Origin: a virus
Taxonomy: Duplodnaviria; Caudoviricetes
DNA length: 57,870 bases
Direction: 5' to 3' (one strand)
Virus record (IMG/VR): IMGVR_UViG_3300049489_000130
Span: 1 to 57,870 of that record
Part shown: piece by piece, positions 40,307 through 57,488 of the stretch
How positions within the stretch are numbered: position 1 is the stretch's first letter
How the letters are laid out: each line of letters starts with the position of its first letter
Notes under the pieces: model-generated
Database searches by the model: none
Told to the model about the DNA's origin: nothing
What the model saw: only the letters and a program-made list of their open reading frames with translations
Made by a program: the position numbers and the translations under genes

Positions 40307-40318
40307 AAACGAGTAATC

Positions 40319-40693: not shown

Positions 40694-40698
40694 GTCTC

Positions 40699-40726
40699 TC
40701 GCAAAGCGAACATCGCTTATAATGAG
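40699..40726 (+). promoter_or_regulatory. Cassette promoter motif, copy 1
   Basis: TCGCA AAGCGA ACAT CGCT TATAAT GAG. Confidence 0.85.
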
Positions 40727-40747
40727 AACCTACCGAAAGGATTTATA

Positions 40748-41035
40748 ATGATCGGAAGATCTGAAACGACAGAGTCAGTCAAGCTGAACTTTGCCATCAA
40801 TCGCGTATTGGACGATATGGACACATATGGCCCGGACGCCCCGGAATACCCCGCACTGCTTGCCAGCCTGGAAAGGCTGACCGAACTGAGAACGACATCA
40901 CGTTCCGCTCGAGTCAGCCCTGACACCATGGCGATTGTCGCTGGGAACCTCCTCGGCATCCTTGTCATTGTAGCATACGAACATACGCACGTTGTGGTAT
41001 CGAAGAGCTTGCCGCTGCTTCTGAAGACAAGATAA
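40748..41035 (+). CDS. Cassette 1 cargo: small membrane protein
   Basis: GAAAGGA RBS; C-terminal TM segment. Confidence 0.75.
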   Translation: MIGRSETTESVKLNFAINRVLDDMDTYGPDAPEYPALLASLERLTELRTTSRSARVSPDTMAIVAGNLLGILVIVAYEHTHVVVSKSLPLLLKTR

Positions 41036-41052
41036 CCGTCACGTAACCAAAC

Positions 41053-41117
41053 GTAGCGAACGACGTAAAGGTCGTGTAAGAGAATACAAACTTACACGGC
41101 CTTTACGTTTTCGCTAT
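41053..41117 (+). terminator. Long (about 27-bp) hairpin closing cassette 1
   Basis: GTAGCGAACGACGTAAAGGTCGTGTAAG / CTTACACGGCCTTTACGTTTTCGCTAT. Confidence 0.75.
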
Positions 41118-41180
41118 TTCTACAAATGGTATAAATTTTTGTTTCTCTGAAAAACCCCGCGGGGTAATTTTGGCAAAAAG

Positions 41181-41208
41181 TCGCAGTTCTAACATCGGTT
41201 ATAATGAG
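41181..41208 (+). promoter_or_regulatory. Cassette promoter motif, copy 2
   Basis: TCGCA GTTCTA ACAT CGGT TATAAT GAG. Confidence 0.85.
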
Positions 41209-41232
41209 AATCATCTACCGAAAGGAGCCATC

Positions 41233-41439
41233 ATGTTTAATCGCACTATCGAGTTGAAGGTGATCAAACCGAAGAAGGCCCAACAGCCCGAACCACCCGC
41301 TGAAGATGGATATCTGGAGAAAGTCGTTTACACGACCCAATCCGCGAAGTCCCTCCTCGACGATGCGGTCAAACTTGTTGGTGCGTATATTCTGTTTGAC
41401 ACTTTCCGCAAGGTAATGATCGAACTGGCCAAGAAGTAA
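41233..41439 (+). CDS. Cassette 2 cargo: small protein
   Basis: GAAAGGAG RBS before ATG 41233; amphipathic C-terminus. Confidence 0.75.
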   Translation: MFNRTIELKVIKPKKAQQPEPPAEDGYLEKVVYTTQSAKSLLDDAVKLVGAYILFDTFRKVMIELAKK

Positions 41440-41446
41440 TGATCAA

Positions 41447-41480
41447 AAGGCCAAGGTCCTGTAGCAAGGGCTTTGGTTTT
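41447..41480 (+). terminator. Hairpin closing cassette 2
   Basis: AAGGCCAAGGTCCT-gtagca-AGGGCTTTGGTTTT with G-U pairs. Confidence 0.75.
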
Positions 41481-41483
41481 CGC

Positions 41484-41511
41484 TCGCAAGAATTACTGCT
41501 CTTATAATGAG
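41484..41511 (+). promoter_or_regulatory. Cassette promoter motif, copy 3
   Basis: TCGCA AGAATT ACTG CTCT TATAAT GAG. Confidence 0.8.
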
Positions 41512-41632
41512 AAGAAAGATAAGACACGACAGTGTAGGTGCAAGACCTACCTATCTGGTGTGGAAGCAAAGCCACTAAATTACCGTTGTCATTGGGCGGT
41601 AATACCCTAGTTCTTCTCGCCTTATATTTTTT
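41509..41632 (+). ncRNA. Putative structured small RNA (cassette 3)
   Basis: GAGAAGAA / TTCTTCTC closing stem, several internal hairpins, T-tract, no RBS-ORF. Confidence 0.6.
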
Positions 41633-41647
41633 CGAAATTGTATAAGG

Positions 41648-41675
41648 TCGCAAAAAGAACATCGCATATAATGAG
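41648..41675 (+). promoter_or_regulatory. Cassette promoter motif, copy 4
   Basis: TCGCA AAAAGA ACAT CGCA TATAAT GAG. Confidence 0.85.
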
Positions 41676-41766
41676 AAGAGGCCTGATTTACAATCAGCTT
41701 TGGAGGAACGAGCCCTACAACCGAATGGTTAAAGCACAAAACGTCCACTCTTCTTTTATAATTTTT
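41673..41766 (+). ncRNA. Putative structured small RNA (cassette 4)
   Basis: GAGAAGAG / CTCTTCTT closing stem, CTGA-TTTACAA-TCAG and AACC/GGTT hairpins, T-tract. Confidence 0.55.
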
Positions 41767-41791
41767 CAAACTGAATAAGAAAGGAAAAGTC

Positions 41792-41932
41792 ATGTGTAAT
41801 TGTAACCAAAACTGTTGTTGTAACTGTAAAAGCTACGGTTTCTTCAATTTCATCTGGGACGTCTTCATGACATTCTTGACGTTTGGAATTTGGTTGATTT
41901 GGGTATTTGTCCGTGAAATGAGAAGGAACTAA
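41792..41932 (+). CDS. Small membrane protein with Cys-rich N-terminus (46 aa)
   Basis: Hand translation MCNCNQNCCCNCKSYGFFNFIWDVFMT...WLIWVFVREMRRN; AAGGA RBS. Confidence 0.8.
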   Translation: MCNCNQNCCCNCKSYGFFNFIWDVFMTFLTFGIWLIWVFVREMRRN

Positions 41933-41944
41933 TAGGAGAATATT

Positions 41945-42058
41945 ATGCGTAATCGTTATGGTTTTTTCAACTTCTGTCTTGATGCTTTCATGACAATTGT
42001 AACCGCCGGATTCTGGCTTATCTGGGTTTTCATCCGAGAAATGCGAAGGAAGAACTAA
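41945..42058 (+). CDS. Small membrane protein (37 aa), tandem paralog of the previous gene
   Basis: MRNRYGFFNFCLDAFMT...WLIWVFIREMRRKN; AGGAG RBS. Confidence 0.8.
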   Translation: MRNRYGFFNFCLDAFMTIVTAGFWLIWVFIREMRRKN

Positions 42059-42160
42059 TGTTCTCAACTAGAGCACTTATCTTTATATTTGTAGTGTTGG
42101 TTGTTTTTATGCTTCTGACAGGTGCAAGTGACGATATGGGTATTCGCGGAAGAGGTTAAT

Positions 42161-42337
42161 ATGATGGATTTTATTGCATATTGGGGAGGGTTCGTCTTCG
42201 GGCTCTCCCTGATTGCATCGCTTTTGTTTTTGCTTGGGCTTTTTGTAGTTAGGCCATTAGTAGAGCGATATTGTATAAGAAAAGAAATAAAGAAATTTAA
42301 CATGCGAGCAGAGGACTTCTTTGATGTATATGAATGA
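42161..42337 (+). CDS. Small membrane protein
   Basis: GAGG RBS; one TM segment. Confidence 0.6.
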   Translation: MMDFIAYWGGFVFGLSLIASLLFLLGLFVVRPLVERYCIRKEIKKFNMRAEDFFDVYE

Positions 42338-43064
42338 AATTGTGAAGAAACTTGAACGTCTTGCTCGAGTAAATTCGCCAGTTATCCTTACTGCCATCGG
42401 CGTTAGTGGAACAATCACGACTGCATATTTGACCGGGCGTGCTGCATACGAATCTGCGTTTGTCATTCTCGAGAAGGAACATGAGCTTGAGACTGGATAT
42501 TTGACCACAAAGGAAAAGACAGAATACGTCTGGCGGCTTTATATCCCAGCTACGGTCTCTGGGGTCGCGACAATCGTTTGTATTATAGGTGCCACGAGAA
42601 TAGGCGCACGTCGAGCAGCAGCGTTGACAGCGGCGTATTCTTTGAGCGACAAAGCGTTTGCTGAATATCGAGAAAAGATTACGGAATCAATCGGCGCCAA
42701 AAAAGAAAAAGCGTTACGCGACGAAATTGCTCAGCAACAAATCACTCAGAATCCCCCAACTAAAGAATTGATTATTGCCGGATCTGGAAGTGTTCTATGC
42801 TGTGAGCTGTTTACGGGTCGATATTTCCATTCTGATATGGAAACGCTTCGAAAGGCTCAGAACGATATCAATGCAAAATTGGTTGGGCATGAGTATGCGA
42901 GTCTTGCTGACTTCTATTACATCGTCGGGCTTCCATACACCTCATATTGTAGTGATATTGGGTGGACTTCAGACAAACTGATGTCTCTTGATTTCTCTAC
43001 TGTTCTTTCGGACGATAACCGACCATGTATTGCGTTTGATTACAATTATACAAAACCATTTTAA
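42330..43064 (+). CDS. DUF6353-like conserved phage protein
   Basis: NSPVIL, LYIPA, AAYS, FAEYREK and IGW pattern; paralog of 45473-46330. Confidence 0.7.
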   Translation: MNEIVKKLERLARVNSPVILTAIGVSGTITTAYLTGRAAYESAFVILEKEHELETGYLTTKEKTEYVWRLYIPATVSGVATIVCIIGATRIGARRAAALTAAYSLSDKAFAEYREKITESIGAKKEKALRDEIAQQQITQNPPTKELIIAGSGSVLCCELFTGRYFHSDMETLRKAQNDINAKLVGHEYASLADFYYIVGLPYTSYCSDIGWTSDKLMSLDFSTVLSDDNRPCIAFDYNYTKPF

Positions 43065-43073
43065 GGAGAAGAA

Positions 43074-43241
43074 ATGAAGCTTAATATTTTTGAGATCTAT
43101 ATCGATCGCGATGGACTTTGGAGGTGGCGTCTTTGGTCTGGCAATAAAAAGATTATTGCTGACTCAGGGCAAGGATATTCGACCAAGTCAAATGCTAAGC
43201 GAGCGATTCGTTCAATGATGGCAGAATTCGAGATTCAGTGA
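43074..43241 (+). CDS. DUF1508 / YegP-like small protein (55 aa)
   Basis: Hand translation FEIYIDRDGLWRWRLWSGNKKIIADSGQGYSTKSNAKRAI. Confidence 0.8.
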   Translation: MKLNIFEIYIDRDGLWRWRLWSGNKKIIADSGQGYSTKSNAKRAIRSMMAEFEIQ

Positions 43242-43546
43242 ACTCCGAAGAATTCAACAAACTCCTTGGTGGTCAATTAGACATGGTTGAAAGTATTCTT
43301 GGTGTAAAAGCTAAGGAGTACGCAACAGACGACCGCCTTCACAATTTCAAGGTCGCGGCTGAACTTCAAGGTTTGACGCCTAAGGAGGCGTTGGCTGGAA
43401 TGATGGCCAAGCACACTGTATCCGTGTATGATATGGCTACTTCGGAAAAGATATTTCCTCTAGCCCAGTGGGAAGAGAAGATTACCGATCATATCAACTA
43501 CCTTATTCTCCTAAAAGCTATTGTAATCGAAGAGGGTTCCTGTTAA
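43238..43546 (+). CDS. Nucleotide-modification-associated all-alpha NTP-PPase-like protein
   Basis: K..EYA..DRLHNF, MAKH and EKITDHINYLILL pattern. Confidence 0.65.
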   Translation: MNSEEFNKLLGGQLDMVESILGVKAKEYATDDRLHNFKVAAELQGLTPKEALAGMMAKHTVSVYDMATSEKIFPLAQWEEKITDHINYLILLKAIVIEEGSC

Positions 43547-43547
43547 C

Positions 43548-43575
43548 TCGCAAGATTAACATCTCATATAATGAG
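43548..43575 (+). promoter_or_regulatory. Cassette promoter motif, copy 5
   Basis: TCGCA AGATTA ACAT CTCA TATAAT GAG. Confidence 0.85.
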
Positions 43576-43598
43576 AACCCACTACAAAGGAGAATCTA

Positions 43599-43787
43599 AT
43601 GGAAAACGAAGTCAACCTCGTTGCAGAAACCGCTGAGACCACCTCGTGGATCGAAAACCCCGTTGCCGCAGTCGCAGTACAGGTCGTCATGACCGTTGCT
43701 GTGCTCGCCACAACTGGATATTTCCTCCGCAAGTGGACTGAGAGGTCCATCCGCAAGAGCCAACTCGAATCCGTCGAGACCAACTGA
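43599..43787 (+). CDS. Cassette 5 cargo: single-TM protein
   Basis: AAAGGAG RBS; one TM segment; C-rich codons. Confidence 0.75.
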   Translation: MENEVNLVAETAETTSWIENPVAAVAVQVVMTVAVLATTGYFLRKWTERSIRKSQLESVETN

Positions 43788-43796
43788 AAAAGTTCC

Positions 43797-43832
43797 AAAA
43801 GTAGAAGCGCCGTAACAAGTGCTTCTGCTTTT
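43797..43832 (+). terminator. Hairpin closing cassette 5
   Basis: AAAAGTAGAAGCGC-cgtaacaa-GTGCTTCTGCTTTT. Confidence 0.8.
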
Positions 43833-43863
43833 GTTTTTGCCTCATACAGAAAAGGAATGCATA

Positions 43864-44331
43864 ATGCTCAAGCGCACTATTACATATGAAGACTTCAACG
43901 ATAACCAGATTACCGAAGACTTCTATTTTAACATGTCAAAGTCGGAACTGGTCGAACTCGAAGTCAGCTATGAAAAGGGTTTTGGTGAAACGCTTCAAGC
44001 CATTATTGAAGCCAAGGATCACAAGCAGTTGATCACCGAGTTCAAGAAGCTTATTCTCATGGCTTATGGCGTCAAGTCTCCCGATGGAAAACGATTCATC
44101 AAGAATGACGAACTTCGTGAAGAGTTCTCACAAACGGCTGCGTATAACGCCTTGTTCATGGAACTGGCAACCGATGAGAATGCTGCTGCAAGTTTCATTC
44201 AAGCAGTCATCCCAAAGGATATGGCAGCCCAGATTGTTGTTGCCGAATCGACCTCTGCCGCTCCGGTTCAAGATTCCCCAGCTCTTCCGCCACCTCCTCC
44301 GGAGACGCCTTTGGTCGGAATCAAGCCCTGA
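43864..44331 (+). CDS. Conserved phage protein (possible displaced tail chaperone)
   Basis: TITYEDF..EDFYFN.SK.EL and AYG.KS.DGKRF motifs. Confidence 0.6.
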   Translation: MLKRTITYEDFNDNQITEDFYFNMSKSELVELEVSYEKGFGETLQAIIEAKDHKQLITEFKKLILMAYGVKSPDGKRFIKNDELREEFSQTAAYNALFMELATDENAAASFIQAVIPKDMAAQIVVAESTSAAPVQDSPALPPPPPETPLVGIKP

Positions 44332-44333
44332 CC

Positions 44334-44361
44334 TCGCTATATTTACATCGGGTATAATGAG
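44334..44361 (+). promoter_or_regulatory. Cassette promoter motif, copy 6
   Basis: TCGCT ATATTT ACAT CGGG TATAAT GAG. Confidence 0.8.
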
Positions 44362-44381
44362 AACTATTGAAAGGACCCACT

Positions 44382-44621
44382 ATGAACAAACTCGAAATTC
44401 TTAAACAAGCCGCTGGCCTCGTCGCCGGTCTTGGTGTAAGTAAGATTGTTGCCGGAATTGTTGCCAATAACGTCGCCACAGAAACCAACTACCAAAAAGT
44501 AGTCGTGTTTGCTGGACGAACCGCTATTGCTGCAGTCATCAGCTCAGTCGTACAAGATCACATCAATACCGTCGTTGATGACGGTGCTGCTTGGGTGAAT
44601 TCGAATATCCTAGTCAAATAA
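44382..44621 (+). CDS. Cassette 6 cargo: small hydrophobic protein
   Basis: GAAAGGA RBS; two hydrophobic helices. Confidence 0.75.
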   Translation: MNKLEILKQAAGLVAGLGVSKIVAGIVANNVATETNYQKVVVFAGRTAIAAVISSVVQDHINTVVDDGAAWVNSNILVK

Positions 44622-44637
44622 CTAATCCCTAGTAATC

Positions 44638-44670
44638 AAAATTAGAAGATCTAACCGGTCTTCTAGTTTT
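44638..44670 (+). terminator. Hairpin closing cassette 6
   Basis: AAAATTAGAAGATC-taacc-GGTCTTCTAGTTTT. Confidence 0.8.
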
Positions 44671-44690
44671 ATAACTTTTGAAGGACATAC

Positions 44691-45311
44691 ATGGAATCAT
44701 TTCCAAGCAACAGTCACAAGAAGACCAAGCCGATGTCGCCGGATCAAAAAAATGTAACCAAAGTCGTTACTGGTGAGGTGGTTCAGCGAAAAAAGTCACT
44801 CGGTCGACGATTTAAGGATATTTTTATGGGTGGAGACATTCGAGGCGTTACTCGTTATATTGCCGCCGACGTTCTTCTTCCAGCCGTTCGAAACATGGTG
44901 GTTGACGCTACAACCGAGGGTATTCGACGCGCAGTGTATGGAGAATCACCGGCACGACGTGGGAGAAGCTCGGATCCAATGCGGTCACGGGTTTCTTATC
45001 ACTCGCCAATGGAACGCTCCCCAATGCGTCCAACTATGCTCCCGGACCAGCCGCCATATTCTGCCAGACGGAAACAAGATCCAAATGAAATCATTCTGGT
45101 TTCTCGAGAAGAAGCAGAATTGGTTGTCGAGCGCCTCGCCGATTTGATTGATAATTTTGATGTTGCCACTGTCGGGGATTTCCATGAGCTCGTTGGACTT
45201 CCCTCTACGTATGTAGATAATAAGTGGGGTTGGACCGCAATCCGAGGTGTTGATATTCGGCAGGTCCGTGAAGGCTATCTAATTGAATTGCCGCCAATAG
45301 AACCAATCTAA
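44691..45311 (+). CDS. Conserved hypothetical phage protein
   Basis: FPSNSH, DVLLPA and DNKWGW motifs. Confidence 0.75.
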   Translation: MESFPSNSHKKTKPMSPDQKNVTKVVTGEVVQRKKSLGRRFKDIFMGGDIRGVTRYIAADVLLPAVRNMVVDATTEGIRRAVYGESPARRGRSSDPMRSRVSYHSPMERSPMRPTMLPDQPPYSARRKQDPNEIILVSREEAELVVERLADLIDNFDVATVGDFHELVGLPSTYVDNKWGWTAIRGVDIRQVREGYLIELPPIEPI

Positions 45312-45328
45312 AATAGGAGTAACACATT

Positions 45329-45463
45329 ATGAGTAATGTAGAACGTGAAGCCCTAAAGAAAGCCTACCCAAACTCTAAGTCTTGGGCCGAAAAAGTAGAC
45401 AAGATGCAACCAAATCAAGTCACAGCGGTTTATATTCGCCTTCGGTCACAACAGAAACTCTAA
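45329..45463 (+). CDS. Small hypothetical protein (44 aa)
   Basis: AGGAG RBS; MSNVEREALKKAYP..WAEKVDKM. Confidence 0.7.
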   Translation: MSNVEREALKKAYPNSKSWAEKVDKMQPNQVTAVYIRLRSQQKL

Positions 45464-45472
45464 GGAGAAATA

Positions 45473-46330
45473 ATGAAGTTGATCCCAAACGCTGTAACCC
45501 GGCAAGTTGCACGTAAGATTCTAATTGCCCAGAAACATTCACCTCGTATTCTGTTTGTTGCTGGTGTTGCTGGTGTCGTCACAAGTACGGTGCTTGCATG
45601 TCGAGCAACATTGAAGCTTCCTGAAGTGGCCGGCGAACTCGAGCATGAGATCGAGGGTGTGAAGATGAATCTTCATGGCACCGACGGCTACCACAAGGAT
45701 TTGGCATACGTCTACATCAAGGGTACGTATCAGATCGGGCGTCTTTACGCTCCTTCTGTGATGCTTGGCGTCGTTTCTATTGGTGCTCTAACCGGTTCAC
45801 ATATCACTCTCACTCGACGTAATGCTTCTTTGACGGCTGCTTATGCTGCAGTATCAAAGGGATTCGATGAGTACCGTGAACGAGTCCGAACTGAGCTCGG
45901 CGAAGAGCGTGAGCGCGAAATTTATCACGCTGTTACTATCGAGCAGATGATTGACGAAGATGGTAAGAAAGTCTTTGTCCCTGTTGCGGACCCGAATCGT
46001 TGGTCGCCTTACGCGCGCTTCTTCGATGAGTCTTCGCCAAACTGGGTCAAAAACGCCGAGCTCAATCGTTTGTTTGTTCAGTGTCAACAGAACTATGCTA
46101 ATCATCTACTGCATGCTCGAGGTCATGTGTTCCTCAATGAAGTGTACGACATGCTAGGTCTCGATCGGTGCAAAGCCGGTCAGACCGTAGGGTGGGTTAT
46201 CGGGCACGATGGTGACAATTATATTGACTTCGGTTTGTATGAAGCAAGTAGTTCTAGATTTGTAAACGGTATTGAACGTAGTATCCTTCTCGACTTCAAT
46301 GTCGACGGCGTAATTATCGATAATATTTAA
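45473..46330 (+). CDS. DUF6353-like conserved phage protein
   Basis: HSPRIL, LYAP, FLNEVYD.LG, VGW and LDFNVDG pattern. Confidence 0.75.
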   Translation: MKLIPNAVTRQVARKILIAQKHSPRILFVAGVAGVVTSTVLACRATLKLPEVAGELEHEIEGVKMNLHGTDGYHKDLAYVYIKGTYQIGRLYAPSVMLGVVSIGALTGSHITLTRRNASLTAAYAAVSKGFDEYRERVRTELGEEREREIYHAVTIEQMIDEDGKKVFVPVADPNRWSPYARFFDESSPNWVKNAELNRLFVQCQQNYANHLLHARGHVFLNEVYDMLGLDRCKAGQTVGWVIGHDGDNYIDFGLYEASSSRFVNGIERSILLDFNVDGVIIDNI

Positions 46331-46339
46331 GGAGATGTA

Positions 46340-47574: not shown

Positions 47575-47585
47575 AGGGAGGTTAT

Positions 47586-51574: not shown

Positions 51575-51587
51575 CGAGAGGTATATT

Positions 51588-52046
51588 ATGTCAGATAAAC
51601 CAGCCACATTTATGGTTGAAGACGCGAAGATCATTTTCCGAAACTTTGCTGGAAGAGAAGATCAGTACAACCGAGAAGGTGACCGTAACTTTGCAGTCGT
51701 CTTGCCTGACGATGTTGCAGAACAGATGCTCAAGGACGGATGGAACGTCAAGTATCTAGAGGCTCGCGAAGAAGGAGACGTGCCGACAGCTTATATTTCT
51801 GTTGCCGTCAACTTCAAAAACCGACCTCCTCGAGTTGTCATGCTTACCTCACGAGCGCGAACTGCCATCCATGAAGATACAATTGAGGTTCTTGACTGGG
51901 CCGAAATCGCTAAGGCCGACTTGATCGCCACGGCATACACCTGGACTGTGAACGGTAAGAGTGGTGTAAAGGCGTATCTGAAGTCTCTCTTTGTCACCAT
52001 CGAAGAGGATGAGCTCGAGCGAAAGTACGCTATCGAGGATGAGTGA
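51588..52046 (+). CDS. Probable single-stranded DNA-binding protein
   Basis: FRNFAG, RNF and KAYL motifs, acidic tail, directly after the polymerase. Confidence 0.65.
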   Translation: MSDKPATFMVEDAKIIFRNFAGREDQYNREGDRNFAVVLPDDVAEQMLKDGWNVKYLEAREEGDVPTAYISVAVNFKNRPPRVVMLTSRARTAIHEDTIEVLDWAEIAKADLIATAYTWTVNGKSGVKAYLKSLFVTIEEDELERKYAIEDE

Positions 52047-52215
52047 ACCAACTAAGAAGGAAAAGCGTCGGGCAAATCTTCTCGATGACTACTGGTTCAA
52101 GTTGTATGGCGACCCAAAAAAGCCTAAGTCAAACACCAGGAACTGGCGGAAGCATATGAAGAACCCAGCTCTCAAGCATTCTGTTACGTCTGATAAACAT
52201 CATCGAGTCGCGTAA
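52039..52215 (+). CDS. Small basic hypothetical protein
   Basis: ATG overlapping the previous gene. Confidence 0.4.
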   Translation: MSEPTKKEKRRANLLDDYWFKLYGDPKKPKSNTRNWRKHMKNPALKHSVTSDKHHRVA

Positions 52216-52299
52216 TGGAAATAGTTCTCGGCGCAATTATCATGCTGGCAGGAATTCTTGTCGGCGCAGCAATCAAGACCACAAATCAAAAGGACGATT

Positions 52300-52677
52300 A
52301 TGGAACCTGAATACGGATTTATCACTTTTAATCGAAAGCCGTTCACTGTTGAGGCGGTCCAGATTACCGAGGAAAACATTGACGCCCTTGGGCCTCTTGT
52401 CGGTTCGGTTAAGACCAGCGGAGAAGGGGAGAAATTCATTACTCTTGATCGGCGTATTGTCCCGAACGTTCGTCGGGCATATGTTGGTTGGTGGATCACC
52501 CGAATGAATGACAACCTTCGCTGTTACTCGCCGAAGATTTTCGAGGAACAGTTTGAAATTGATGAGGGGTATGTTCCGGTCAGTCACTTGGCTACGTTGG
52601 AGACACCTACCACTACCTCATCTTCTTCCCCTAATCTCACGGTGACAACCTTGATTGTCAACGATCCTGACGCATGA
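52300..52677 (+). CDS. Conserved phage protein (KPxxVEAVQ family)
   Basis: RKPFTVEAVQ, VGWWI and F...FE motifs; AAGGA RBS. Confidence 0.7.
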   Translation: MEPEYGFITFNRKPFTVEAVQITEENIDALGPLVGSVKTSGEGEKFITLDRRIVPNVRRAYVGWWITRMNDNLRCYSPKIFEEQFEIDEGYVPVSHLATLETPTTTSSSSPNLTVTTLIVNDPDA

Positions 52678-52769
52678 GCTTCTGGATGATGAGTATTGCC
52701 GCAGTCTCGCTTGTCGGGATTGGGGTATATCTGTACGCTTCTTGGCGTATGGATAACGATGTCGACTGA
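52674..52769 (+). CDS. Small single-TM protein (31 aa)
   Basis: ATGA overlap; hydrophobic. Confidence 0.45.
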   Translation: MSFWMMSIAAVSLVGIGVYLYASWRMDNDVD

Positions 52770-53272
52770 GCGACGTTAAATAGCCTTTAGGCTCAGAGCG
52801 GTAGTGGTTCCCGAATTGCGCTGTGAGCGTGGCATGGGATTAAATGACATAGAGCGAGATCATTGTCAGCCACTACATAGACTGTGAAGGACACACAGAG
52901 CGCCATTGGGGACTGCCTGAGCGGTTCCACGCGCACCAATGGTTCGGGTAAAAAACAAACCGGTTTGGAAGCTACAGGCGGCGGGATTACCTACTCGAGG
53001 AGCCCGCATTTCTGGAAGGTGAGAGCTCCGGAATATTCAAATGACAACGTAGGTTATGAAGACTGAGTCCTGAGACCAGCACCTATGTTTACCACCTATC
53101 TTGTGGAAAACTAAACAGCATGTTCACCGAAAGCTGTTGGATAATCTAAAGTCCCTGTGGTGGCAGGGCAAATACGACGGTACTGACATCCGCAATTCCC
53201 CCTCCTGCAAAAGTCAGTTAAATCAGAGATGTTCTGTCCCCCCATACAGAGGACCTCTTAGCCTAAACGCTC
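52768..53272 (+). ncRNA. Large (about 505 nt) highly structured non-coding RNA
   Basis: 5'-3' closing helix GAGCG..TTTAGGCT.AGAG / CTCT.AGCCTAAACGCTC and more than 10 internal helices in an otherwise gene-dense genome. Confidence 0.75.
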
Positions 53273-53300
53273 TACCCAATAATAATCAAAGGAGAATAAT

Positions 53301-53531
53301 ATGGATGAGACCACTGAAACTCGTAATGTTTTGTATGAAGTATTTGTTCGTTATACAGATTATCCTGCTGATCATATTAAAAATGTCGAAGCATGGCGTT
53401 TGGAAGATGAGGTTTACTTCTTCTTTGTCAAATCATTTCTCGATCCAAAGATTCCGGCCATTCAAACTTTTTGGGTAAAAAACCCAAACGTTATTTCGAT
53501 CAATATCGTTCCCGTTAAATTTGCTGATTGA
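53301..53531 (+). CDS. Hypothetical protein
   Basis: AAGGAG RBS. Confidence 0.65.
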   Translation: MDETTETRNVLYEVFVRYTDYPADHIKNVEAWRLEDEVYFFFVKSFLDPKIPAIQTFWVKNPNVISINIVPVKFAD

Positions 53532-53540
53532 GGTAATTCA

Positions 53541-53960
53541 ATGCAGACTTTCGTTCCATTTGAGAATTATGAAGACAGCGCCGAATGCCTCGATCGCCAA
53601 AGATTGGGTAAGCAGCGTGTAGAAGTACTGCAGATATACAATGCTCTTACCGGTCATTCACATGGTTGGGCTAACCATCCCGCTACTCGTATGTGGCGTG
53701 GACACGCCGGAGCTTTGTTAGATTACGGCATCATGGTTTGCCTTGTGTGGACAGCTCGAGGTTATATCGATAACACACGTGATAAGCTTCTAACGCTACG
53801 CGACAACGTGGATCTTGGCGAATCTTTTCACTACCCTCCTTGGTGGGGTGGCCCTATTCATGAATCTCATCAAGCGGCCTTAGTCCGTAAAGATCCAAAT
53901 TTCTATCGACCTATTTTTCCCGATGTGGATGATACGATCCCGTACTATTGGCCGGTATAA
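53541..53960 (+). CDS. Pyrimidine-dimer DNA glycosylase / endonuclease V-like (MSMEG_6728-type)
   Basis: MQTF, LD..RLGKQRVE..QI, HPA..MW and SHQAALVRKDP motifs. Confidence 0.85.
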   Translation: MQTFVPFENYEDSAECLDRQRLGKQRVEVLQIYNALTGHSHGWANHPATRMWRGHAGALLDYGIMVCLVWTARGYIDNTRDKLLTLRDNVDLGESFHYPPWWGGPIHESHQAALVRKDPNFYRPIFPDVDDTIPYYWPV

Positions 53961-53961
53961 C

Positions 53962-54129
53962 ATGATAAACATTTTAGTACTTATAGCTTTCATTCACGTC
54001 ATTCAAGATAATGCTCGAGCTTACGGATTTGAAGCTGGTAGACAAGGGGTTGTGAAACAAAACTTTATGTCTAGCCCGGATAACCCGTTCGTGCACAATT
54101 GGCGTCATATTTATGGATTGGATAGATGA
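53962..54129 (+). CDS. Small hypothetical protein
   Basis: Tightly packed ORF. Confidence 0.5.
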   Translation: MINILVLIAFIHVIQDNARAYGFEAGRQGVVKQNFMSSPDNPFVHNWRHIYGLDR

Positions 54130-54326
54130 TGTCTAGTCGGCATGAAAAAGAAGACAATATTGCTGACTTAGCGCTTTGGGCAGTAATTTTCTTCGGTATT
54201 GGTAGTCTTATATTCATGAATCGTTCACCACAAAACCAGGGGGGCTTCTTGATTGCTGGAACAATTTCCTTTGTTACTGCTATCGTATTCGTGTTTCTTA
54301 TCTTTCTGAGTAGAGACGATCGATGA
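54126..54326 (+). CDS. Two-TM membrane protein
   Basis: Two hydrophobic segments; ATGA overlaps. Confidence 0.6.
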   Translation: MMSSRHEKEDNIADLALWAVIFFGIGSLIFMNRSPQNQGGFLIAGTISFVTAIVFVFLIFLSRDDR

Positions 54327-54489
54327 AATACGTTTTGATAACTGTAGCTCCTTCGGGAACGATGACAGCCAAACCCACGGACAACTACATGCAGGCGAAA
54401 GCAGAAGTCCTAGATGAGGGATGGTCTGCCTTTGTGGTAGAGGTTAAGTCGTTTCAGATAAATCGAAACCCCTATCCTGGAAGAGACTA

Positions 54490-54714
54490 ATGGATGAAGA
54501 CATTATTGAAGATCTTGCCGATGCTTTTGCGGGGCAGTTAAAATATATCGAAGAGAAATTCTTCACCCATTCCGCACTTAAAGAAGTAGTATATGATAGT
54601 ATGTATGCAGTCGCGACTGTAATAAACAATCATAACCCAACATATGATCTTCGTTACTTCTATAAGCGTGCGGGATTCCCAGAACCTTATCCGATTCATC
54701 CTATTCAGTATTGA
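54490..54714 (+). CDS. Hypothetical protein
   Basis: ORF with NP.YD..YF motif. Confidence 0.6.
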   Translation: MDEDIIEDLADAFAGQLKYIEEKFFTHSALKEVVYDSMYAVATVINNHNPTYDLRYFYKRAGFPEPYPIHPIQY

Positions 54715-54722
54715 TGGTTCTC

Positions 54723-54748
54723 CCACCTGGGCATGTGGTAAACTGCCC
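54723..54748 (+). ncRNA. H-type pseudoknot motif, copy 1
   Basis: CCAC-CTGGGCAT-GTGG-TAAAC-TGCCC. Confidence 0.5.
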
Positions 54749-54752
54749 GTTC

Positions 54753-54824
54753 GCATCTCTAGCTCAATGGAAGAGCAGTAGGCTTTTAACCTATTGGTTC
54801 TGGGTTCGAGCCCCAGGGGATGCA
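54753..54824 (+). tRNA. tRNA-Lys (UUU)
   Basis: Cloverleaf; anticodon loop CT-TTT-AA; TTCGAG T-loop; no encoded CCA. Confidence 0.92.
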
Positions 54825-54904
54825 CTCATATGAAAGGAGAGTGGTGTCACCATGCCCTAACTTAAAGGTAATGCGCATAACTAAAGAGAGCACATGCATG
54901 ATTG

Positions 54905-54937
54905 CGATCCTGGGTATGATCGACTAAAAAACTGCCC
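54905..54937 (+). ncRNA. H-type pseudoknot motif, copy 2
   Basis: CGATC-CTGGGTAT-GATCG-ACTAAAAAAC-TGCCC. Confidence 0.5.
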
Positions 54938-54969
54938 ACCCCATAATCACATTTATCAAAGGAGTAGTA

Positions 54970-55173
54970 ATGTACGTGTTTACTTGCAACGATTTCGAAG
55001 GTTTTTATCCGGTTGGGACGGCCGCGGTGGTTGTTGCCAATAATGAGGAAGAAGCCAAAAAGATGCTCATTGACGAATTGGATAAGCGCGGTCTCCCGCA
55101 GACAGACCCGACCTTGACTTTTGTCCACACGTTGTCCCCCTCGGTACATATTCTCTGCGATGGGAACTACTGA
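54970..55173 (+). CDS. Hypothetical protein
   Basis: AAGGAG RBS; VVANNEEEA motif. Confidence 0.7.
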   Translation: MYVFTCNDFEGFYPVGTAAVVVANNEEEAKKMLIDELDKRGLPQTDPTLTFVHTLSPSVHILCDGNY

Positions 55174-55520
55174 TGGACATCACATGTAAATTCTGTGGCA
55201 CAAAACACGAGCACGTTGAGGGTGGACCAGACGCAAGGATCACATGTCAATGTGGTCGTGAACTGACCGGCGTATTCTCTATGAGCACAAACAAGCTGGT
55301 AGAAGATGTAAGCCGCGCGTTCCGACGTGGCCTTCTTCGATCCTTCTCTTCACAGGATCTTCTTGGAGAAGTGAGCGATCGTATCGATGACCAAATCAAA
55401 GCCGAAGAGGCTGCTAATGTAGAAAGAGAGGGGTTCATGGAACTATTGAATCATCCTACCATGACTACAGAAGAGGCTTGCCGCATCTTTCTGCAGAACA
55501 AGGGATGGGAAGTTCTATGA
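55173..55520 (+). CDS. Hypothetical protein with N-terminal zinc ribbon
   Basis: CKFC...CQCG. Confidence 0.65.
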   Translation: MDITCKFCGTKHEHVEGGPDARITCQCGRELTGVFSMSTNKLVEDVSRAFRRGLLRSFSSQDLLGEVSDRIDDQIKAEEAANVEREGFMELLNHPTMTTEEACRIFLQNKGWEVL

Positions 55521-55702
55521 TGACTCGTTGGATTGTTCACATTACGTCTATCGAAAATATGACGAACCAGACAGAAAAGATCACCGAGGTTATTGTGGTC
55601 GCGGACAACATGGGAGGTGTTCTTGACATTGTTGAGTCTATGCTCCGCAATGTCACATTGTACACCCTTATTGTAGCAATCAACATCACTAAGGAACGGT
55701 AA
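55517..55702 (+). CDS. Small hypothetical protein
   Basis: ATGA overlap. Confidence 0.5.
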   Translation: MMTRWIVHITSIENMTNQTEKITEVIVVADNMGGVLDIVESMLRNVTLYTLIVAINITKER

Positions 55703-55708
55703 GTCACA

Positions 55709-55783
55709 GCCCCCATAGCCCAACTGGCAGAGGCAATTGGCTTAAACCCGATCAAGTGCTGGGTTCGAATCCCGCTGGGGGCA
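55709..55783 (+). tRNA. tRNA-Leu (UAA), short variable arm
   Basis: GCCCCCA / TGGGGGC acceptor; loop CT-TAA-AC; TTCGAAT T-loop. Confidence 0.88.
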
Positions 55784-55787
55784 CTGG

Positions 55788-55861
55788 ACTCCCGTAGCTC
55801 AGTTGGTTAGAGCAGCATGCTTATAACATGCAGGTCGCGGGTTCAATCCCCGCCGGGGGTA
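55788..55861 (+). tRNA. tRNA-Ile (UAU)
   Basis: ACTCCCG / CGGGGGT acceptor; GCATG-CT-TAT-AA-CATGC anticodon arm. Confidence 0.88.
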
Positions 55862-55862
55862 C

Positions 55863-55890
55863 TCGCATAAGAAACATGTGTTATAATGAG
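55863..55890 (+). promoter_or_regulatory. Cassette promoter motif, copy 7
   Basis: TCGCA TAAGAA ACAT GTGT TATAAT GAG. Confidence 0.85.
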
Positions 55891-55910
55891 ACCTACCGAA
55901 AGGATTAATA

Positions 55911-56165
55911 ATGAGAAAATCAACCATCATCCTCACTACGGCAACCGCACTTTGTGTTGGAGACGCTATCGGCGTAACCAGAGCAAATCGTCGTGCGCGA
56001 AAGATCATCTCGAAGAAGAACGCCCACATTGAGGGGCTGGCACTTCGACTGCTTTCCATCATGACTCTAATGCAAAACATCACCAATGGTGTTTCCACGC
56101 AGGATGCCATTGCCCGTTTTGTTGAAGAATCGGAATTCATCGCTATTGTCACTGAAAAGATCTAA
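55911..56165 (+). CDS. Cassette 7 cargo: small protein with hydrophobic N-terminus
   Basis: CTACCGAAAGGA leader shared with cassettes 1 and 2. Confidence 0.75.
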   Translation: MRKSTIILTTATALCVGDAIGVTRANRRARKIISKKNAHIEGLALRLLSIMTLMQNITNGVSTQDAIARFVEESEFIAIVTEKI

Positions 56166-56194
56166 GGAGATCGCCCGCAAGGGCTTTCTCTTTT
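56164..56194 (+). terminator. Hairpin closing cassette 7
   Basis: AAGGAGATCGCCC-gcaa-GGGCTTTCTCTTTT. Confidence 0.75.
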
Positions 56195-56209
56195 CTTATT
56201 TGGAGGGGT

Positions 56210-56602
56210 ATGAGATCACCAAAGAAACAGAAAGAACGACGTAGAGTTCTTCGTAGGCGTCTAGAAATTCGAAGTGGTAAGACCGAGCTTGAAATAGAAT
56301 ATGCGGTATGGCGTTTGTTCATGTTAGAAGAAGGTATTAGTCCTGTTGAGATCGACCGCAGAATTGATGCTCTAGTATTCAACGCTTTGGCCTCACGACA
56401 TTCGACCGAACGAGCTTTGGAGATTACCGGGTTTTATAGACAAGAAGACGGTTATGTTTCCCCAGATGACAAAAAGTACAAACCAACTTCAGTACTCAAA
56501 GAATTAAATGGTGTAGCCAGAGCTACTGGTGAAACTGCCAAAGCTATTAAACGTGGTAAGACAATCACTAAGTGGCAATATGATGAGAGGACTAAGGAAT
56601 AA
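56210..56602 (+). CDS. Basic hypothetical protein
   Basis: GGAGG RBS. Confidence 0.6.
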   Translation: MRSPKKQKERRRVLRRRLEIRSGKTELEIEYAVWRLFMLEEGISPVEIDRRIDALVFNALASRHSTERALEITGFYRQEDGYVSPDDKKYKPTSVLKELNGVARATGETAKAIKRGKTITKWQYDERTKE

Positions 56603-56931
56603 TGAAAACATCTCTACGAAATGTAACGTCCGGAGGCATACATTACCAAGCATTAGCGTTCTGGTGTCCTGGGTGTGCATCGATGAAAGATTTGGGTAGT
56701 GGACTTCATATGCTTCCTGTGAACTCTACAGAACGTAGTCCTTCCTGGGATTTTGACGGAAATTTAGAATCACCTACATTATCGCCATCAATTTTAACTC
56801 GTTACAACGATCAGGTGTGCCATTCATTTTTAAGAAATGGTGTTTTTGAATTTCTTAGCGATTGTACACATGAATTTGCTGGGCAAAACATTCCAATTCC
56901 AGATCTACCAGAAGGTTATTTTGAGGAGTAA
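56602..56931 (+). CDS. DUF6527-like Cys/His metal-binding protein
   Basis: FWCPGC, W.FDG..PTLSPSIL, CHSF and SDCTH motifs. Confidence 0.75.
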   Translation: MKTSLRNVTSGGIHYQALAFWCPGCASMKDLGSGLHMLPVNSTERSPSWDFDGNLESPTLSPSILTRYNDQVCHSFLRNGVFEFLSDCTHEFAGQNIPIPDLPEGYFEE

Positions 56932-56933
56932 TT

Positions 56934-57218
56934 ATGGCGTGGAGCGATAATGTATCATTTGTAAGCCCCGAAAGACTAGCTGAGAAATTAGATCTACCCA
57001 TCGCCGCCGTTCATATGTGGCGTACTAACATGAACTACATGCGTTTCGGAGGGGCAATATGCATGGGGTGTGGGCGATATATTAAACCGCATTCTCATCA
57101 TTGTTGTTTTGAGGATGGTTCATATTACACAATTACTTACGATTTAATGAGAAGTACGAATATCCCATACGAACTCACAAGAGGTAATAATGAAAGCCAT
57201 AACAATCACGGAAACTAA
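56934..57218 (+). CDS. Hypothetical Cys/His protein
   Basis: GAGGAG RBS; CMGC..HHCC. Confidence 0.55.
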   Translation: MAWSDNVSFVSPERLAEKLDLPIAAVHMWRTNMNYMRFGGAICMGCGRYIKPHSHHCCFEDGSYYTITYDLMRSTNIPYELTRGNNESHNNHGN

Positions 57219-57417
57219 CAAACAGACAATCGCAACAAAGTTCTCTATCATGAATACGGATATCGAGGCTGTCTTGCCTACTGGTTATATCCTCATTACG
57301 GATTTTGGTGTGGATGAACACTTCGAGGTTCTTACTCCTGAGAGATTCGCGATCTATTTCCGGAAGACCGGTTTGAAATTGAAAAATGACTTCTACGAGA
57401 TCATGCCGAAAGTTTGA
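57190..57417 (+). CDS. Hypothetical protein
   Basis: GAGGT RBS. Confidence 0.6.
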   Translation: MKAITITETNKQTIATKFSIMNTDIEAVLPTGYILITDFGVDEHFEVLTPERFAIYFRKTGLKLKNDFYEIMPKV

Positions 57418-57421
57418 GTCA

Positions 57422-57449
57422 TCGCATATTCTACATCGGTTATAATGAA
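57422..57449 (+). promoter_or_regulatory. Cassette promoter motif, copy 8 (no cargo)
   Basis: TCGCA TATTCT ACAT CGGT TATAAT GAA. Confidence 0.8.
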
Positions 57450-57452
57450 GAT

Positions 57453-57488
57453 AAGACTAAGGCCCCTTTAACAAGGGCTTTAGTTTTT
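57453..57488 (+). terminator. Hairpin directly after promoter copy 8
   Basis: AAGACTAAGGCCC-ctttaacaa-GGGCTTTAGTTTT. Confidence 0.8.

Follow-up and report, generated by a model that had tools for sequence, protein, structure and literature searches.

Eight sites in this viral DNA (the window, 57,870 nucleotides, analysed over its whole length) are almost certainly promoters of a special, phage-specific class that is not of the sigma-70 type. They are likely to be promoters of the phage's own RNA polymerase, encoded at 5505..8171, and to head an array of swappable promoter-cargo-terminator units. A pattern scan of the whole window with the 27-base motif TCGCW-N6-ACWK-N4-TATAATGA finds exact copies at 40699, 41181, 41484, 41648, 43548, 44334, 55863 and 57422, all on the plus strand, which confirms the eight fixed-spacing copies listed in the original prediction. 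No exact match is present on the minus strand of the window or in 100 dinucleotide-preserving shuffles of it, and when up to three mismatches are allowed, the number of sites is still eight (0.85 expected). TATAATGA by itself occurs nine times on the plus strand and never on the minus strand. Among 10- and 11-mers, those repeated most often in the window belong to this motif, and no other multi-copy motif was found there. Five of the copies begin 1-5 nt past a stop codon or tRNA end (the holin stop at 40693, the stops at 43546, 44331 and 57417, and the tRNA-Ile end at 55862) and the remaining three follow another cassette, at the positions predicted.

The end of TCGCA is separated from TATAAT by 14 nt, and the hexamer 16-18 nt upstream of TATAAT is TTGACA-like at none of the eight sites. 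Thus no -35 box is present, and the earlier view that TCGCA is not a sigma-70 -35 element is borne out. TGn precedes TATAAT only in the copy at 55863. Transcription probably starts directly after TATAAT, unlike in sigma-70 geometry, because the predicted closing stems of the non-coding cargos begin 1-4 nt downstream of it in 15 of 21 non-coding units (at nt 1 in 11); these stems are minimum-energy predictions, and six of the 21 units are without one under the rule applied. The paired sequences co-vary, as in GAGAGG/CCTCTC, GAAGAGCC/GGCTCTTC and GAGGA/TCCTC. Numbered from the G that follows TATAAT (+1), the elements of the promoter would be TCGCA upstream at -25 to -21, a spacer rich in A and T, a conserved CA at -13/-12, four variable positions rich in G and C, TATAAT itself at -6 to -1 and GAGA where initiation occurs. 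Within the -10 hexamer, sigma-70 depends most on position 2, which in record G012 is A at only 8 of 16 sites, with TAATGA retained. The sites thus behave as promoters of a non-sigma-70 class, in support of the non-canonical reading first proposed.

Downstream of each motif lies either a short leader with a small ORF or a structured non-coding RNA, and a U-tract hairpin comes next; as had been claimed, all eight cassettes have a hairpin or closing stem with a T-tract behind it. All of the features described here lie on the plus strand. Promoter 1 (TCGCA...TATAATGA, 40699..40725, putative start G at 40724) lies 5 nt past the holin stop and precedes a 95-aa protein with a C-terminal hydrophobic segment (40748..41035, phrog_5818), which is the conserved first cassette behind the holin in nine phages. 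Its terminator hairpin with a T-tract (41053..41117) is followed by a second such hairpin, CCCCGCGGGG, at about 41149-41175. Promoter 2 (41181..41207) heads a 68-aa protein belonging to a family of two (41233..41439), with a terminator hairpin (41447..41480) that adjoins promoter 3 (41484..41510). The third cargo is a structured non-coding RNA (41509..41632), in which 41509-41516 pairs with 41611-41618 ahead of a T-run at 41627-41632; the closing stem of this RNA (41509-41618) is kept with compensatory changes in three other phage contigs. Promoter 4 (41648..41674) is followed by a structured RNA or leader of about 85 nt (41673..41765; stem 41675-41680 with 41748-41753, then a U-tract) and, downstream, by a T-rich operon of six genes (41792..43546) encoding two paralogous tiny membrane proteins, a 58-aa protein, phrog_2152, phrog_1422 and phrog_6802.

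Promoter 5 (43548..43574) precedes a singleton 62-aa protein with one hydrophobic segment (43599..43787) and a terminator with a 15-bp stem followed by TTTTTG (43796..43843). Promoter 6 (44334..44360) precedes a 79-aa protein with two hydrophobic segments (44382..44621), one of a family of five across the phage group, and a terminator at 44638..44680. Promoter 7 (55863..55889), beginning 1 nt past tRNA-Ile, heads a singleton 84-aa protein (55911..56165) and a terminator at 56166..56201. Behind promoter 8 (57422..57448), a 35-nt hairpin with a T-tract (57453..57488) begins 7 nt past TATAAT and might be an attenuator or an RNA of about 42 nt; it is followed by an ORF (57516-57692) and then by a long operon reaching the polymerase gene. 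The claim of one small cargo per promoter fails at 41648, with its structured RNA and six-gene operon, and at 57422, with its hairpin and long operon.

The cargo ORFs are richer in C (mean 0.253) than their neighbours (0.193) and the genome (0.222), as had been noted. Profile searches found no family hit with a function for the cargos, and so nothing in support of the host-takeover, exclusion or anti-defence roles first suggested for them. Across the phage group, 116 cargo proteins fall into 86 families, which agrees with the proposal of exchangeable cargo; because the units differ so much between related phages, they act as exchangeable modules. The protein cargos were also said to be unrelated. 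This does not apply to those at 40748-41035 and 44382-44621, which are not 'unrelated' extras since their families are conserved across the group. Related phages lose homology to one another at the promoters, in line with modular units: 17 of 156 homology-block ends lie at motif sites, against 5.6 +/- 2.3 expected. These breakpoints are compatible with recombination at the conserved ends, although conserved islands beside diverged cargo would look identical.

The motif recurs 1-16 times per genome, on the gene strand, in phages that carry a gene for an HTH-flanked two-barrel (YonO/QDE-1-like, PHROG 4291) polymerase. Among them are Streptomyces, Arthrobacter and Gordonia phages, with Lactococcus phages retaining the core only. 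Streptomyces phage Scap1 has five sites at up to three mismatches (0.05 expected), the first directly behind its holin, while Arthrobacter phage Gordon has seven and Gordonia phage Crocheter eight, all on the plus strand. In Lactococcus phage P078, the core TTACAyACCCTATAATG occurs nine times on the plus strand and never on the minus strand, without TCGCA. Among 49 IMG/VR records retrieved by the exact motif alone, 31 contain a polymerase homologue. In those at least 90% complete the proportion is 15 of 16, so that motif and polymerase gene occur together as anticipated; the sixteenth has seven motif copies and the DNA polymerase of the group, and its sequence stops before the place of the polymerase gene. 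Common descent confounds this linkage, since every gene of the group co-occurs with the others. In the 16 near-complete records all 107 motif matches lie on the gene strand; a reversed-pattern control gave one match. In a set of 135 sites from the window and 21 related stretches, one site is on the opposite strand; 116 sites have a ribosome site plus ORF (median 72 aa) within the next 70 nt, and the other 19 precede non-coding RNA. A hairpin with a T-tract is found within 130 nt past the stop in 96 of 115 units, compared with 88 of 345 random places.

The candidate reader (5505..8171, +) is a predicted single-chain two-barrel RNA polymerase of 888 aa. It matches phrog_4291 (E = 0) and has GADFDGD at residues 502-508. 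Since none of 17 homologues departs from the catalytic ADFDGD, the protein appears to be kept as an enzyme and would need promoters of its own. HTH matches are located at both ends (residues 80-112 and 852-881), including Sigma70_r4_2 below the cut-off. The predicted structure (pLDDT 78.9) best matches QDE-1 (E 1e-7), and then the P23-45-family phage polymerases gp64 and gp62 (1.6e-5 and 7e-5), RDR2 and beta-prime subunits; phmmer against PDB chains gave no polymerase match. The product is 50-60% identical to supercluster signature proteins that have been predicted as RNA polymerase (Koert et al., bioRxiv 10.1101/842583), and the word 'promoter' is absent from the available portion of that text. 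The polymerase family has thus already been predicted in print, whereas its promoter apparently has not.

RNA from three units is found in a metatranscriptome run of another study (X4, contigs), in which three contigs identical to the window each lie directly downstream of a motif: 41512-41742 in cassette 3, beginning 4 nt past TATAAT, 44372-44544 in cassette 6 (depth 97.5) and 55915-56162 in cassette 7 (depth 73.9). Such contigs give no start, end or strand, and the RNA library may hold DNA; by our own arithmetic the eight units together make up about 1.8 kb of the 17.9 kb considered.

In the mechanism that we infer, the phage polymerase, rather than the host enzyme with a phage factor, would read these sites. 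Its built-in HTH modules would bind the duplex upstream part of the promoter, and the enzyme would melt TATAAT and initiate at the G just downstream without a host sigma factor. A protein unit has a leader of 22-36 nt with a ribosome site of the GAAAGGA type, followed by an ORF that is about 60-95 aa long and often codes for a hydrophobic product; in an RNA unit the 5' and 3' ends of a structured RNA pair with each other. Every unit is closed by a U-tract hairpin. The units are arrayed in tandem where the non-structural arm begins, behind the holin, and again behind the tRNAs. The polymerase itself might either be delivered with the virion or be made from host-type promoters. Against this reading, TATAAT is the exact sigma-70 -10 consensus, and Streptomyces phages drift to TATAGT, which also matches the host TANNNT type. 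No motif copy lies ahead of the structural genes (8.6-40.7 kb), and therefore this class cannot explain all phage transcription. The host enzyme is probably used as well, because extended -10-like TGTTATACT sites are present upstream of the polymerase operon and past the 57422 hairpin.

It is possible, if rather unlikely, that the host primary-sigma holoenzyme reads TATAAT while a phage DNA-binding protein on TCGCA/ACA replaces the -35 contact, the binder being either the 888-aa protein, through its HTH modules, or some other factor, as with MotA/AsiA at T4 middle promoters. The perfect TATAAT at 8/8 sites, TATAGT in a Streptomyces phage, an upstream element centred near the position of the MotA box and the sigma region 4-like HTH fit such activation. 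On the other hand, conservation of the TTACAy and GAGA flanks extends from actinobacterial phages to those of Lactococcus although a host sigma has no need of them, and a start 6-8 nt downstream would cut the closing stems found in 15 of 21 non-coding cargos. The variable second hexamer base in G012, the invariant ADFDGD together with the lack of another multi-copy motif in the window and, weakly, the RNA contig starting 4 nt past TATAAT also speak against it. An improbable variant has the host holoenzyme using TATAAT early at a low level and the phage polymerase using the full 27-bp site later, giving two expression phases. The combination of a consensus -10 with phage-specific flanks and the TGn of copy 55863 would suit dual use, but TGn is confined to that one site, a -35 is found at none, and two starts are not called for by any of these data. 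That the sites are not promoters at all, and are binding or recombination sites (for cassette attachment, or operators of the HTH protein) that happen to be intergenic, is very improbable. The excess of block ends at the sites agrees with this, but four observations do not: the strand bias is strict (135 to 1 and 107 to 0), ribosome sites and start codons follow at a fixed distance, structured RNAs have their 5' ends directly behind the sites, and the RNA contigs lie just downstream.

Several known systems are close to the proposed one. T7-class promoters have a conserved duplex of more than 20 bp in many same-strand copies, with an upstream binding part and an A/T-rich melting part before the G start, and strong ribosome sites and hairpin terminators downstream. 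The promoters of the window share this layout and would work in the same mode, although the polymerase folds are unrelated (a Pol I-like right hand in T7, two-barrel here), and the sequence likeness (CTATA...GAGA) is at most an analogy. T4 middle promoters, where MotA/AsiA appropriate sigma, use the host core with sigma-70 and start at the usual -10 distance. They resemble the present sites in a -10-like TATAAT with a phage-specific upstream box replacing the -35, but the putative start here abuts TATAAT and the phage has its own predicted polymerase. Morons are reportedly promoter-gene-terminator units inserted in phage genomes, as described by Hendrix and co-workers; the classical ones have host-type promoters, are single and are expressed from prophages. 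The units of the window are likewise autonomous, each with its promoter, small gene and terminator, lie between core genes and vary among related phages, but they share one phage-specific promoter and form tandem arrays, and a PHROGs scan of the 51 larger ORFs showed no integrase.

To our knowledge, YonO of the Bacillus prophage SPbeta has no HTH flanks. YonO is the nearest tested relative of the 888-aa polymerase and is likewise a siphophage single-chain two-barrel DNA-dependent RNA polymerase with a DxDGD loop that transcribes a defined set of phage genes; according to the portion of the report consulted, it transcribes the late operon from one start with a promoter sequence left undetermined, whereas the window has many short units in the non-structural arm (PMC5467207, Nat Commun 2017). 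The P23-45 family has two-barrel phage polymerases, gp64 (non-virion) and gp96 (virion), and two promoter motifs (PMC10770324, Nat Commun 2024). Here too a single-chain enzyme is accompanied by its own conserved motifs upstream of early genes, confined to relatives carrying it (PMC10770324, as far as its available text goes), and the structure search with the 888-aa protein places gp64 and gp62 among its best matches. The two are separate sequence families, with 12% identity in the structural match. The P23-45 motifs are described as AT-rich and GC-rich, in contrast to the bipartite 27-mer, and their starts were mapped by experiment, whereas those of the window are deduced from sequence; the words HTH and helix-turn-helix are absent from the same portion of text, whereas the 888-aa protein has HTH modules (PMC10770324). 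An HTH-flanked 'RdRP-like' signature protein characterizes the supercluster of Streptomyces BI, Arthrobacter AM-AU-AW, Gordonia DJ, Lactococcus 1706 and Faecalibacterium phages (bioRxiv 10.1101/842583), and the product of 5505-8171 is a member, with the same genome-end place, DxDGD and terminal HTHs. In the available portion of their text Koert et al. describe the protein only.

The sequence TCGCW-N6-ACWK-N4-TATAATGA (27 bases), hereafter the motif, occurs exactly eight times in the window, starting at 40699, 41181, 41484, 41648, 43548, 44334, 55863 and 57422, all on the plus strand, and never in 100 shuffles. A tolerance of three mismatches adds no further site in the window, and among the 10- and 11-mers of the window the motif is the one repeated most. 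Each copy heads a unit made of the motif, a leader, a small ORF or structured RNA (the cargo), and a hairpin with a T-tract. Five copies begin 1–5 nt past a stop codon or the end of the tRNA-Ile, and the other three come after another unit. At 40699, 41181, 43548, 44334 and 55863, a ribosome binding site and an ORF of 62–95 aa follow 22–27 nt on; at 41484 and 41648, structured non-coding RNA lies downstream; and at 57422, a 35-nt hairpin with a T-tract comes first and an ORF only afterwards. In each of the eight units, a G+C-containing hairpin or closing stem is followed by a T-run, as in intrinsic terminators, and the polymerase may stop there. The mean C content is 0.253 in cargo ORFs and 0.193 in their neighbours. 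The original prediction had described the eight sites, their placement, the closing hairpins and the C-richness of the protein cargos in the same terms. Its further claim of one small cargo per cassette applies to six units, but the unit at 41648 is followed by an operon of six genes and that at 57422 by a long operon ending with the polymerase gene. Two paralogous tiny proteins of 46 and 37 aa (41792–41932 and 41945–42058) share YGFFNF...W(L)IWVF(V/I)REMRR and open a T-rich operon (G+C 36–44%, against 46% for the genome); the 46-aa protein has a Cys-rich N-terminus (MCNCNQNCCCNC).

TATAAT is present at all eight sites. A TTGACA-like hexamer 16–18 bp upstream of it is absent from the motif sites, the hexamers at the −35 distance being TCTCTC, AAAGTC, TCGCTC, AAGGTC, TAACTC, GACCTC, GTACTC and GTCATC, and the TGn of an extended −10 element is lacking at seven of them, TG occurring only at 55863. 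A sigma-70 consensus scan of 39500–57870 returned 37 sites against 32.7 ± 6.2 in shuffles and caught a single motif site, 43548 (TTAACT-18-TATAAT, 10/12). The second base of the −10 hexamer is the one most needed by sigma-70. In one related IMG/VR record (G012), A occupies this position at just 8 of the 16 sites, with TAATGA retained. The lack of a −35-like hexamer and of TGn, together with this variable second base, argues against a promoter of sigma-70 type.

The anatomy of the units was compared in the window and 21 related stretches with a looser regular expression; of its matches, 135 lie on the gene strand and one on the opposite strand. Among positions left free by the expression, A is conserved at position 5 (86% of the 135 sites) and at position 14 (94%), and the third and fourth bases past TATAAT are G in 70% and A in 83%. 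A ribosome binding site with an ORF lies within 70 nt of 116 sites, and the remaining 19 lead into non-coding RNA. In coding units the leader has its mode at 22–36 nt, and the ORF has a median of 72 aa, not exceeding 120 aa in 111 of the 116. A hairpin with a T-tract follows the stop codon within 130 nt in 96 of the 115 coding units; among 345 random places, 88 have one. A CCTAC element occurs in 28 of the 116 leaders and was rejected as a general feature, being lineage-specific.

BLASTP sorts the 116 cargo proteins into 86 families, of which 72 have a single member. When three related records are compared, entire units sit between promoter copies in one record and are missing in another. The cargo is thus variable, as modular units had been expected to be. 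In these three records, 17 of 156 BLASTN block ends lie at promoters, against 5.6 ± 2.3 in random sets, none of which (0/2000) reaches 17. Such breakpoints, with the presence or absence of units, are compatible with modular exchange without proving its mechanism. In the window, the cargo at 40748–41035 belongs to a family of nine that is invariably the first unit behind the holin, that at 44382–44621 belongs to a family of five, and the remaining protein cargos are private or nearly so. By a crude Kyte–Doolittle rule, 60 of the 116 cargo proteins have at least one hydrophobic segment.

For the non-coding cargos, an Rfam scan gave no family; its only hits, tRNAs and a Pistol ribozyme, lie elsewhere. 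One structured RNA of about 110 nt, with a closing stem and four hairpins that show compensatory changes, forms a family in four phage contigs (window 41509–41632; L011 804–911; L058, reverse; L157 2324–2443) and has no Rfam match. Many non-coding cargos of relatives are tRNA-like or have a T-arm (GGTTCGAAYCC) together with a closing stem that resembles an acceptor stem (related stretches L147 at 23224 and 23318, L149 at 22384, L161 at 15320, L164 at 1382, L170 at 2087 and L148 at 19544); the L170 cargo resembles a complete tRNA gene without CCA. The Pistol ribozyme (RF02679) is intergenic at 52760–52806 (+) and scores 41.4 bits against a gathering score of 34.5. DNA contigs of a freshwater-sediment run, X1, break at 52760–52902.

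Three lines point to a probable transcription start directly after TATAAT. Minimum-energy folds of 21 non-coding units (the 19 and two in Lactococcus phage P078), each taken from the base next to TATAAT up to the first T-tract, predict a closing stem in 15, the 5' strand of which begins at nt 1 (11 units), nt 3 (two) or nt 4 (two). The pairs of these stems vary among phages in a compensatory manner. The window RNA 41509–41618 is represented by homologues in three further contigs, among which double changes preserve the pairing of the closing stem GAGAAGAA/TTCTTCTC and of two inner hairpins. As predicted, the closing stems would tell against a sigma-70-type start 6–8 nt downstream, which would remove most of them. 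The third line, which would tell against it too, is a contig from a metatranscriptome that is identical to the window and starts at 41512, the fourth base past TATAAT.

The freshwater-sediment run X1 contains the window DNA in full and may be its source. An RNA run of another study, X4, was compared with window 40000–57870 and gave three contigs without differences from it, each directly downstream of a motif: 41512–41742 (depth 3.1), 44372–44544 (depth 97.5) and 55915–56162 (depth 73.9). By our arithmetic, the eight units make up about one tenth of the 17.9 kb compared. The rest of this region has no cover except tRNA-like pieces from other organisms, which is not taken as silence. The X4 contigs, whose ends and strand are not readable and whose library possibly contained DNA, are a hint rather than proof that the units are transcribed. 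The DNA runs X2 and X3, with small shares of the window, yielded scattered pieces of 151–226 nt, from which no conclusion was drawn.

The candidate reader of the motif is the polymerase of 888 aa encoded at 5505–8171 (+). It matches PHROG family phrog_4291 ('RNA-dependent RNA polymerase') over its full length (E = 0; residues 4–886 on profile positions 7–907 of 909) and contains the catalytic loop GADFDGD at residues 502–508, DFDGD being present in all 17 aligned homologues. Helix-turn-helix (HTH) matches occur at both ends: HTH_38/CENP-B_N of Pfam at 80–112, and HTH_23, HTH_7, Sigma70_r4_2 and GerE at 852–881, some of the latter below the curated cut-off, as is the case for Sigma70_r4_2. Pfam gave nothing beyond HTH families, and searches of PDB chains with the single sequence or with a profile found HTH proteins only, in the profile search at 853–883; the two-barrel fold was therefore shown through structure. 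An AlphaFold2 model from a 17-row alignment (pLDDT 78.9, pTM 0.58) was compared by Foldseek, and among the matches listed at E ≤ 0.001, 22 of 22 were QDE-1, RDR2 or polymerases of the P23-45 family (QDE-1, E ~1e-7; gp64, 1.6e-5, and gp62, 7e-5, of the P23-45 family; plant RDR2). Matches to gp96 and beta-prime subunits were weaker, and the global TM-scores of the structural matches were low (0.22–0.32). From DFDGD, the HTH matches and the structural matches, the protein as modelled is a two-barrel polymerase whose single chain also carries DNA-binding modules. In their text, Koert et al. (bioRxiv 10.1101/842583) had already predicted an RNA polymerase, citing its HHpred match to RdRP together with the DxDGD loop and the HTHs at its ends.

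Homologues of this polymerase are found in 250 GenBank phage records, with 38–60% identity among the records listed, and the hosts include Arthrobacter (95), Gordonia (55), Streptomyces (54) and Lactococcus (13), among others. The group corresponds to the 'supercluster' in the text of the same preprint. The gene order of the window matches those of Streptomyces phage Scap1, Arthrobacter phage Gordon, Gordonia phage Crocheter and Lactococcus phage P078. Scap1 has five motif copies at three or fewer mismatches against 0.05 expected, the first one directly behind the holin, and a loose expression finds seven copies in Gordon and eight in Crocheter, all on the plus strand. In P078 (33% G+C), the sequence is TTACAyACCCTATAATG, with nine copies on the plus strand and none on the minus strand; the core is common with the other phages, and (A/T)TTTA replaces TCGCA.

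An exact-pattern scan of IMG/VR found the motif in at least 137 stretches, many holding two to four copies. Among the 49 records behind the first 50 motif loci, 31 have the polymerase gene; this homologue set was drawn from records found by the motif (a locus search with the single protein gave five loci) and is biased to motif carriers. The predicted co-occurrence of motif and polymerase gene was upheld in 15 of the 16 records that are at least 90% complete. The sixteenth, G018, has seven motif copies and the DNA polymerase of the group and lacks the polymerase gene; it ends about 5 kb past the DNA polymerase gene, and the exonuclease preceding the polymerase is also missing, so it is cut off before the polymerase place. 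A slightly loosened pattern gave 107 gene-strand matches and none opposite in the 16 records, and a reversed control gave one. A long conserved sequence on the same strand before genes, as expected of a phage-specific promoter, is thus found in both samples (135 against 1 in the 22 stretches; 107 against 0 in the 16 records). The motif also accompanies the polymerase in phages of different hosts, a linkage confounded by shared descent. In eight of the 31 records (G007, G008, G010, G013, G024, G032, G047 and G048), the polymerase homologue matched as two separate pieces, some with one in-frame stop, and the DNA polymerase gene of G018 (41771–46993) has an interruption of about 1.4 kb; these features could reflect introns, inteins or homing-endonuclease insertions.

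The window, an entire IMG/VR virus record (57,870 bp; estimated completeness 97%), repeats its first bases at its end over about 168 bases (1–168 and 57703–57870, one difference) and is therefore a circular permutation of a complete genome. Its called genes are all on the plus strand, and PHROG scans show a siphovirus layout of terminase (16331–18076), portal, protease/capsid and tail genes, with a tape measure protein of 1591 aa, up to the holin (40319–40693). The non-structural arm follows, with a primase-polymerase of 1249 aa (47586–51335) and then an annealing protein, three tRNAs, thymidylate synthase, helicase, HNH endonuclease and exonuclease. The polymerase gene is the last before a G/C-rich palindrome (8435–8598) directly behind its operon, probably the physical (cos) end of the genome in view of relatives in which the polymerase gene is last. 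A megablast of window 40000–46000 against GenBank phages gave no match.

Two readings are considered for the timing and supply of the polymerase. Virion delivery is hinted at by a GenBank note on the homologue of ReqiPoco6 ('structural protein, similar to phage 1706 gp75 structural protein') and by the polymerase N-terminus, MIIDxDxYLxHYG (5505–5560), common to two small proteins (15992–16050 and 18073–18130) that flank the terminase and portal genes. Matches to this piece also occur at the N-terminus in 14 PHROG families, among them one that bears the name virion structural protein. A strict expression for this N-terminal motif found the polymerase alone, the likeness to the two small proteins being a looser one seen on reading the N-termini, and literature searches on 1706 orf75 found no virion evidence, the ReqiPoco6 note being the sole source of 'structural protein'. 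The shared piece would fit a capsid-targeting tag. In the other reading, the host enzyme could express the polymerase. An AT-rich non-coding gap at 3489–4089, between the helicase and HNH genes, contains TGTTATACT(AC) on the forward strand at 3769, 3907 and 4011 and on the reverse strand at 3864 and 3968, as well as GGGTGAAAAT-like repeats; the same gap in Crocheter and Scap1 contains TTGTCAAA-type repeats. The three forward, extended −10-like copies of TGTTATACT lie upstream of the HNH–exonuclease–polymerase operon, and a fourth, at 57493, lies directly behind the 57422 hairpin. They could be host promoters of extended −10 type for the polymerase operon, or they could mark a replication origin.

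Taken as a whole, these observations may be accommodated, tentatively, in a self-contained, sigma-free system of a virion-packed two-barrel polymerase with its own HTHs, a 27-bp promoter and exchangeable units. The polymerase would be packed in the virion through its N-terminal tag and injected with the DNA; its own HTH modules would read the bipartite promoter and start at the G right after TATAAT. Its targets would form an array of freely exchangeable promoter–cargo–terminator units, whose cargos, small membrane proteins and RNAs that are tRNA-like or otherwise structured, would ready the cell ahead of any host transcription of phage genes. Three rivals were weighed against the motif as a probable promoter of this polymerase. 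Recognition of the sites by the host holoenzyme with a phage activator bound at TCGCA, in the manner of MotA, is suggested by TATAAT being the exact −10 consensus, which turns into TATAGT in Streptomyces phages. It is nevertheless rather unlikely, leaving unexplained the conserved flanks in Lactococcus phages, the closing stems and an enzyme with an invariant active site in phages without any other repeated motif. Dual use of the same sites appears quite improbable, and a role other than that of a promoter, for sites lying on one strand before genes, would be hard to credit.

If real, the sigma-free system would amount to an array of cassettes carried by a phage together with a polymerase to read it. 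The polymerase family has already been predicted in print, and no description of its promoter was found in the literature searched. The word 'promoter' is absent from the text of Koert et al. (bioRxiv 10.1101/842583). Among the papers listed for the literal motif, none is on phages by title, and literature searches on YonO, two-barrel or YonO-like polymerases, Scap1, Arthrobacter clusters and ReqiPepy6/1706/FP_oengus gave no description of a promoter with this motif. A large cultured phage group (250 GenBank records; Arthrobacter, Gordonia, Streptomyces and Lactococcus) now has a compact promoter candidate together with a polymerase carrying sigma-like HTHs in its chain, and existing phages allow a direct test of how promoters are found without sigma by a minimal two-barrel polymerase. 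If confirmed, the system would provide orthogonal expression for Gram-positive hosts, and the cassette array would be a defined site in which to seek small proteins and RNAs that act on the host early.

Phage polymerases with their own promoters, such as those of T7, SP6 and N4, are central tools and models, and the system of the window presumably functions like T7-class promoters. To our knowledge, promoter recognition by single-chain two-barrel polymerases, relatives of the cellular catalytic core, is known only for a pair from a Thermus phage. For YonO, the source (PMC5467207) gives no promoter sequence. The polymerase pair of Thermus phage P23-45 (PMC10770324) is the closest homologous system with known promoters.
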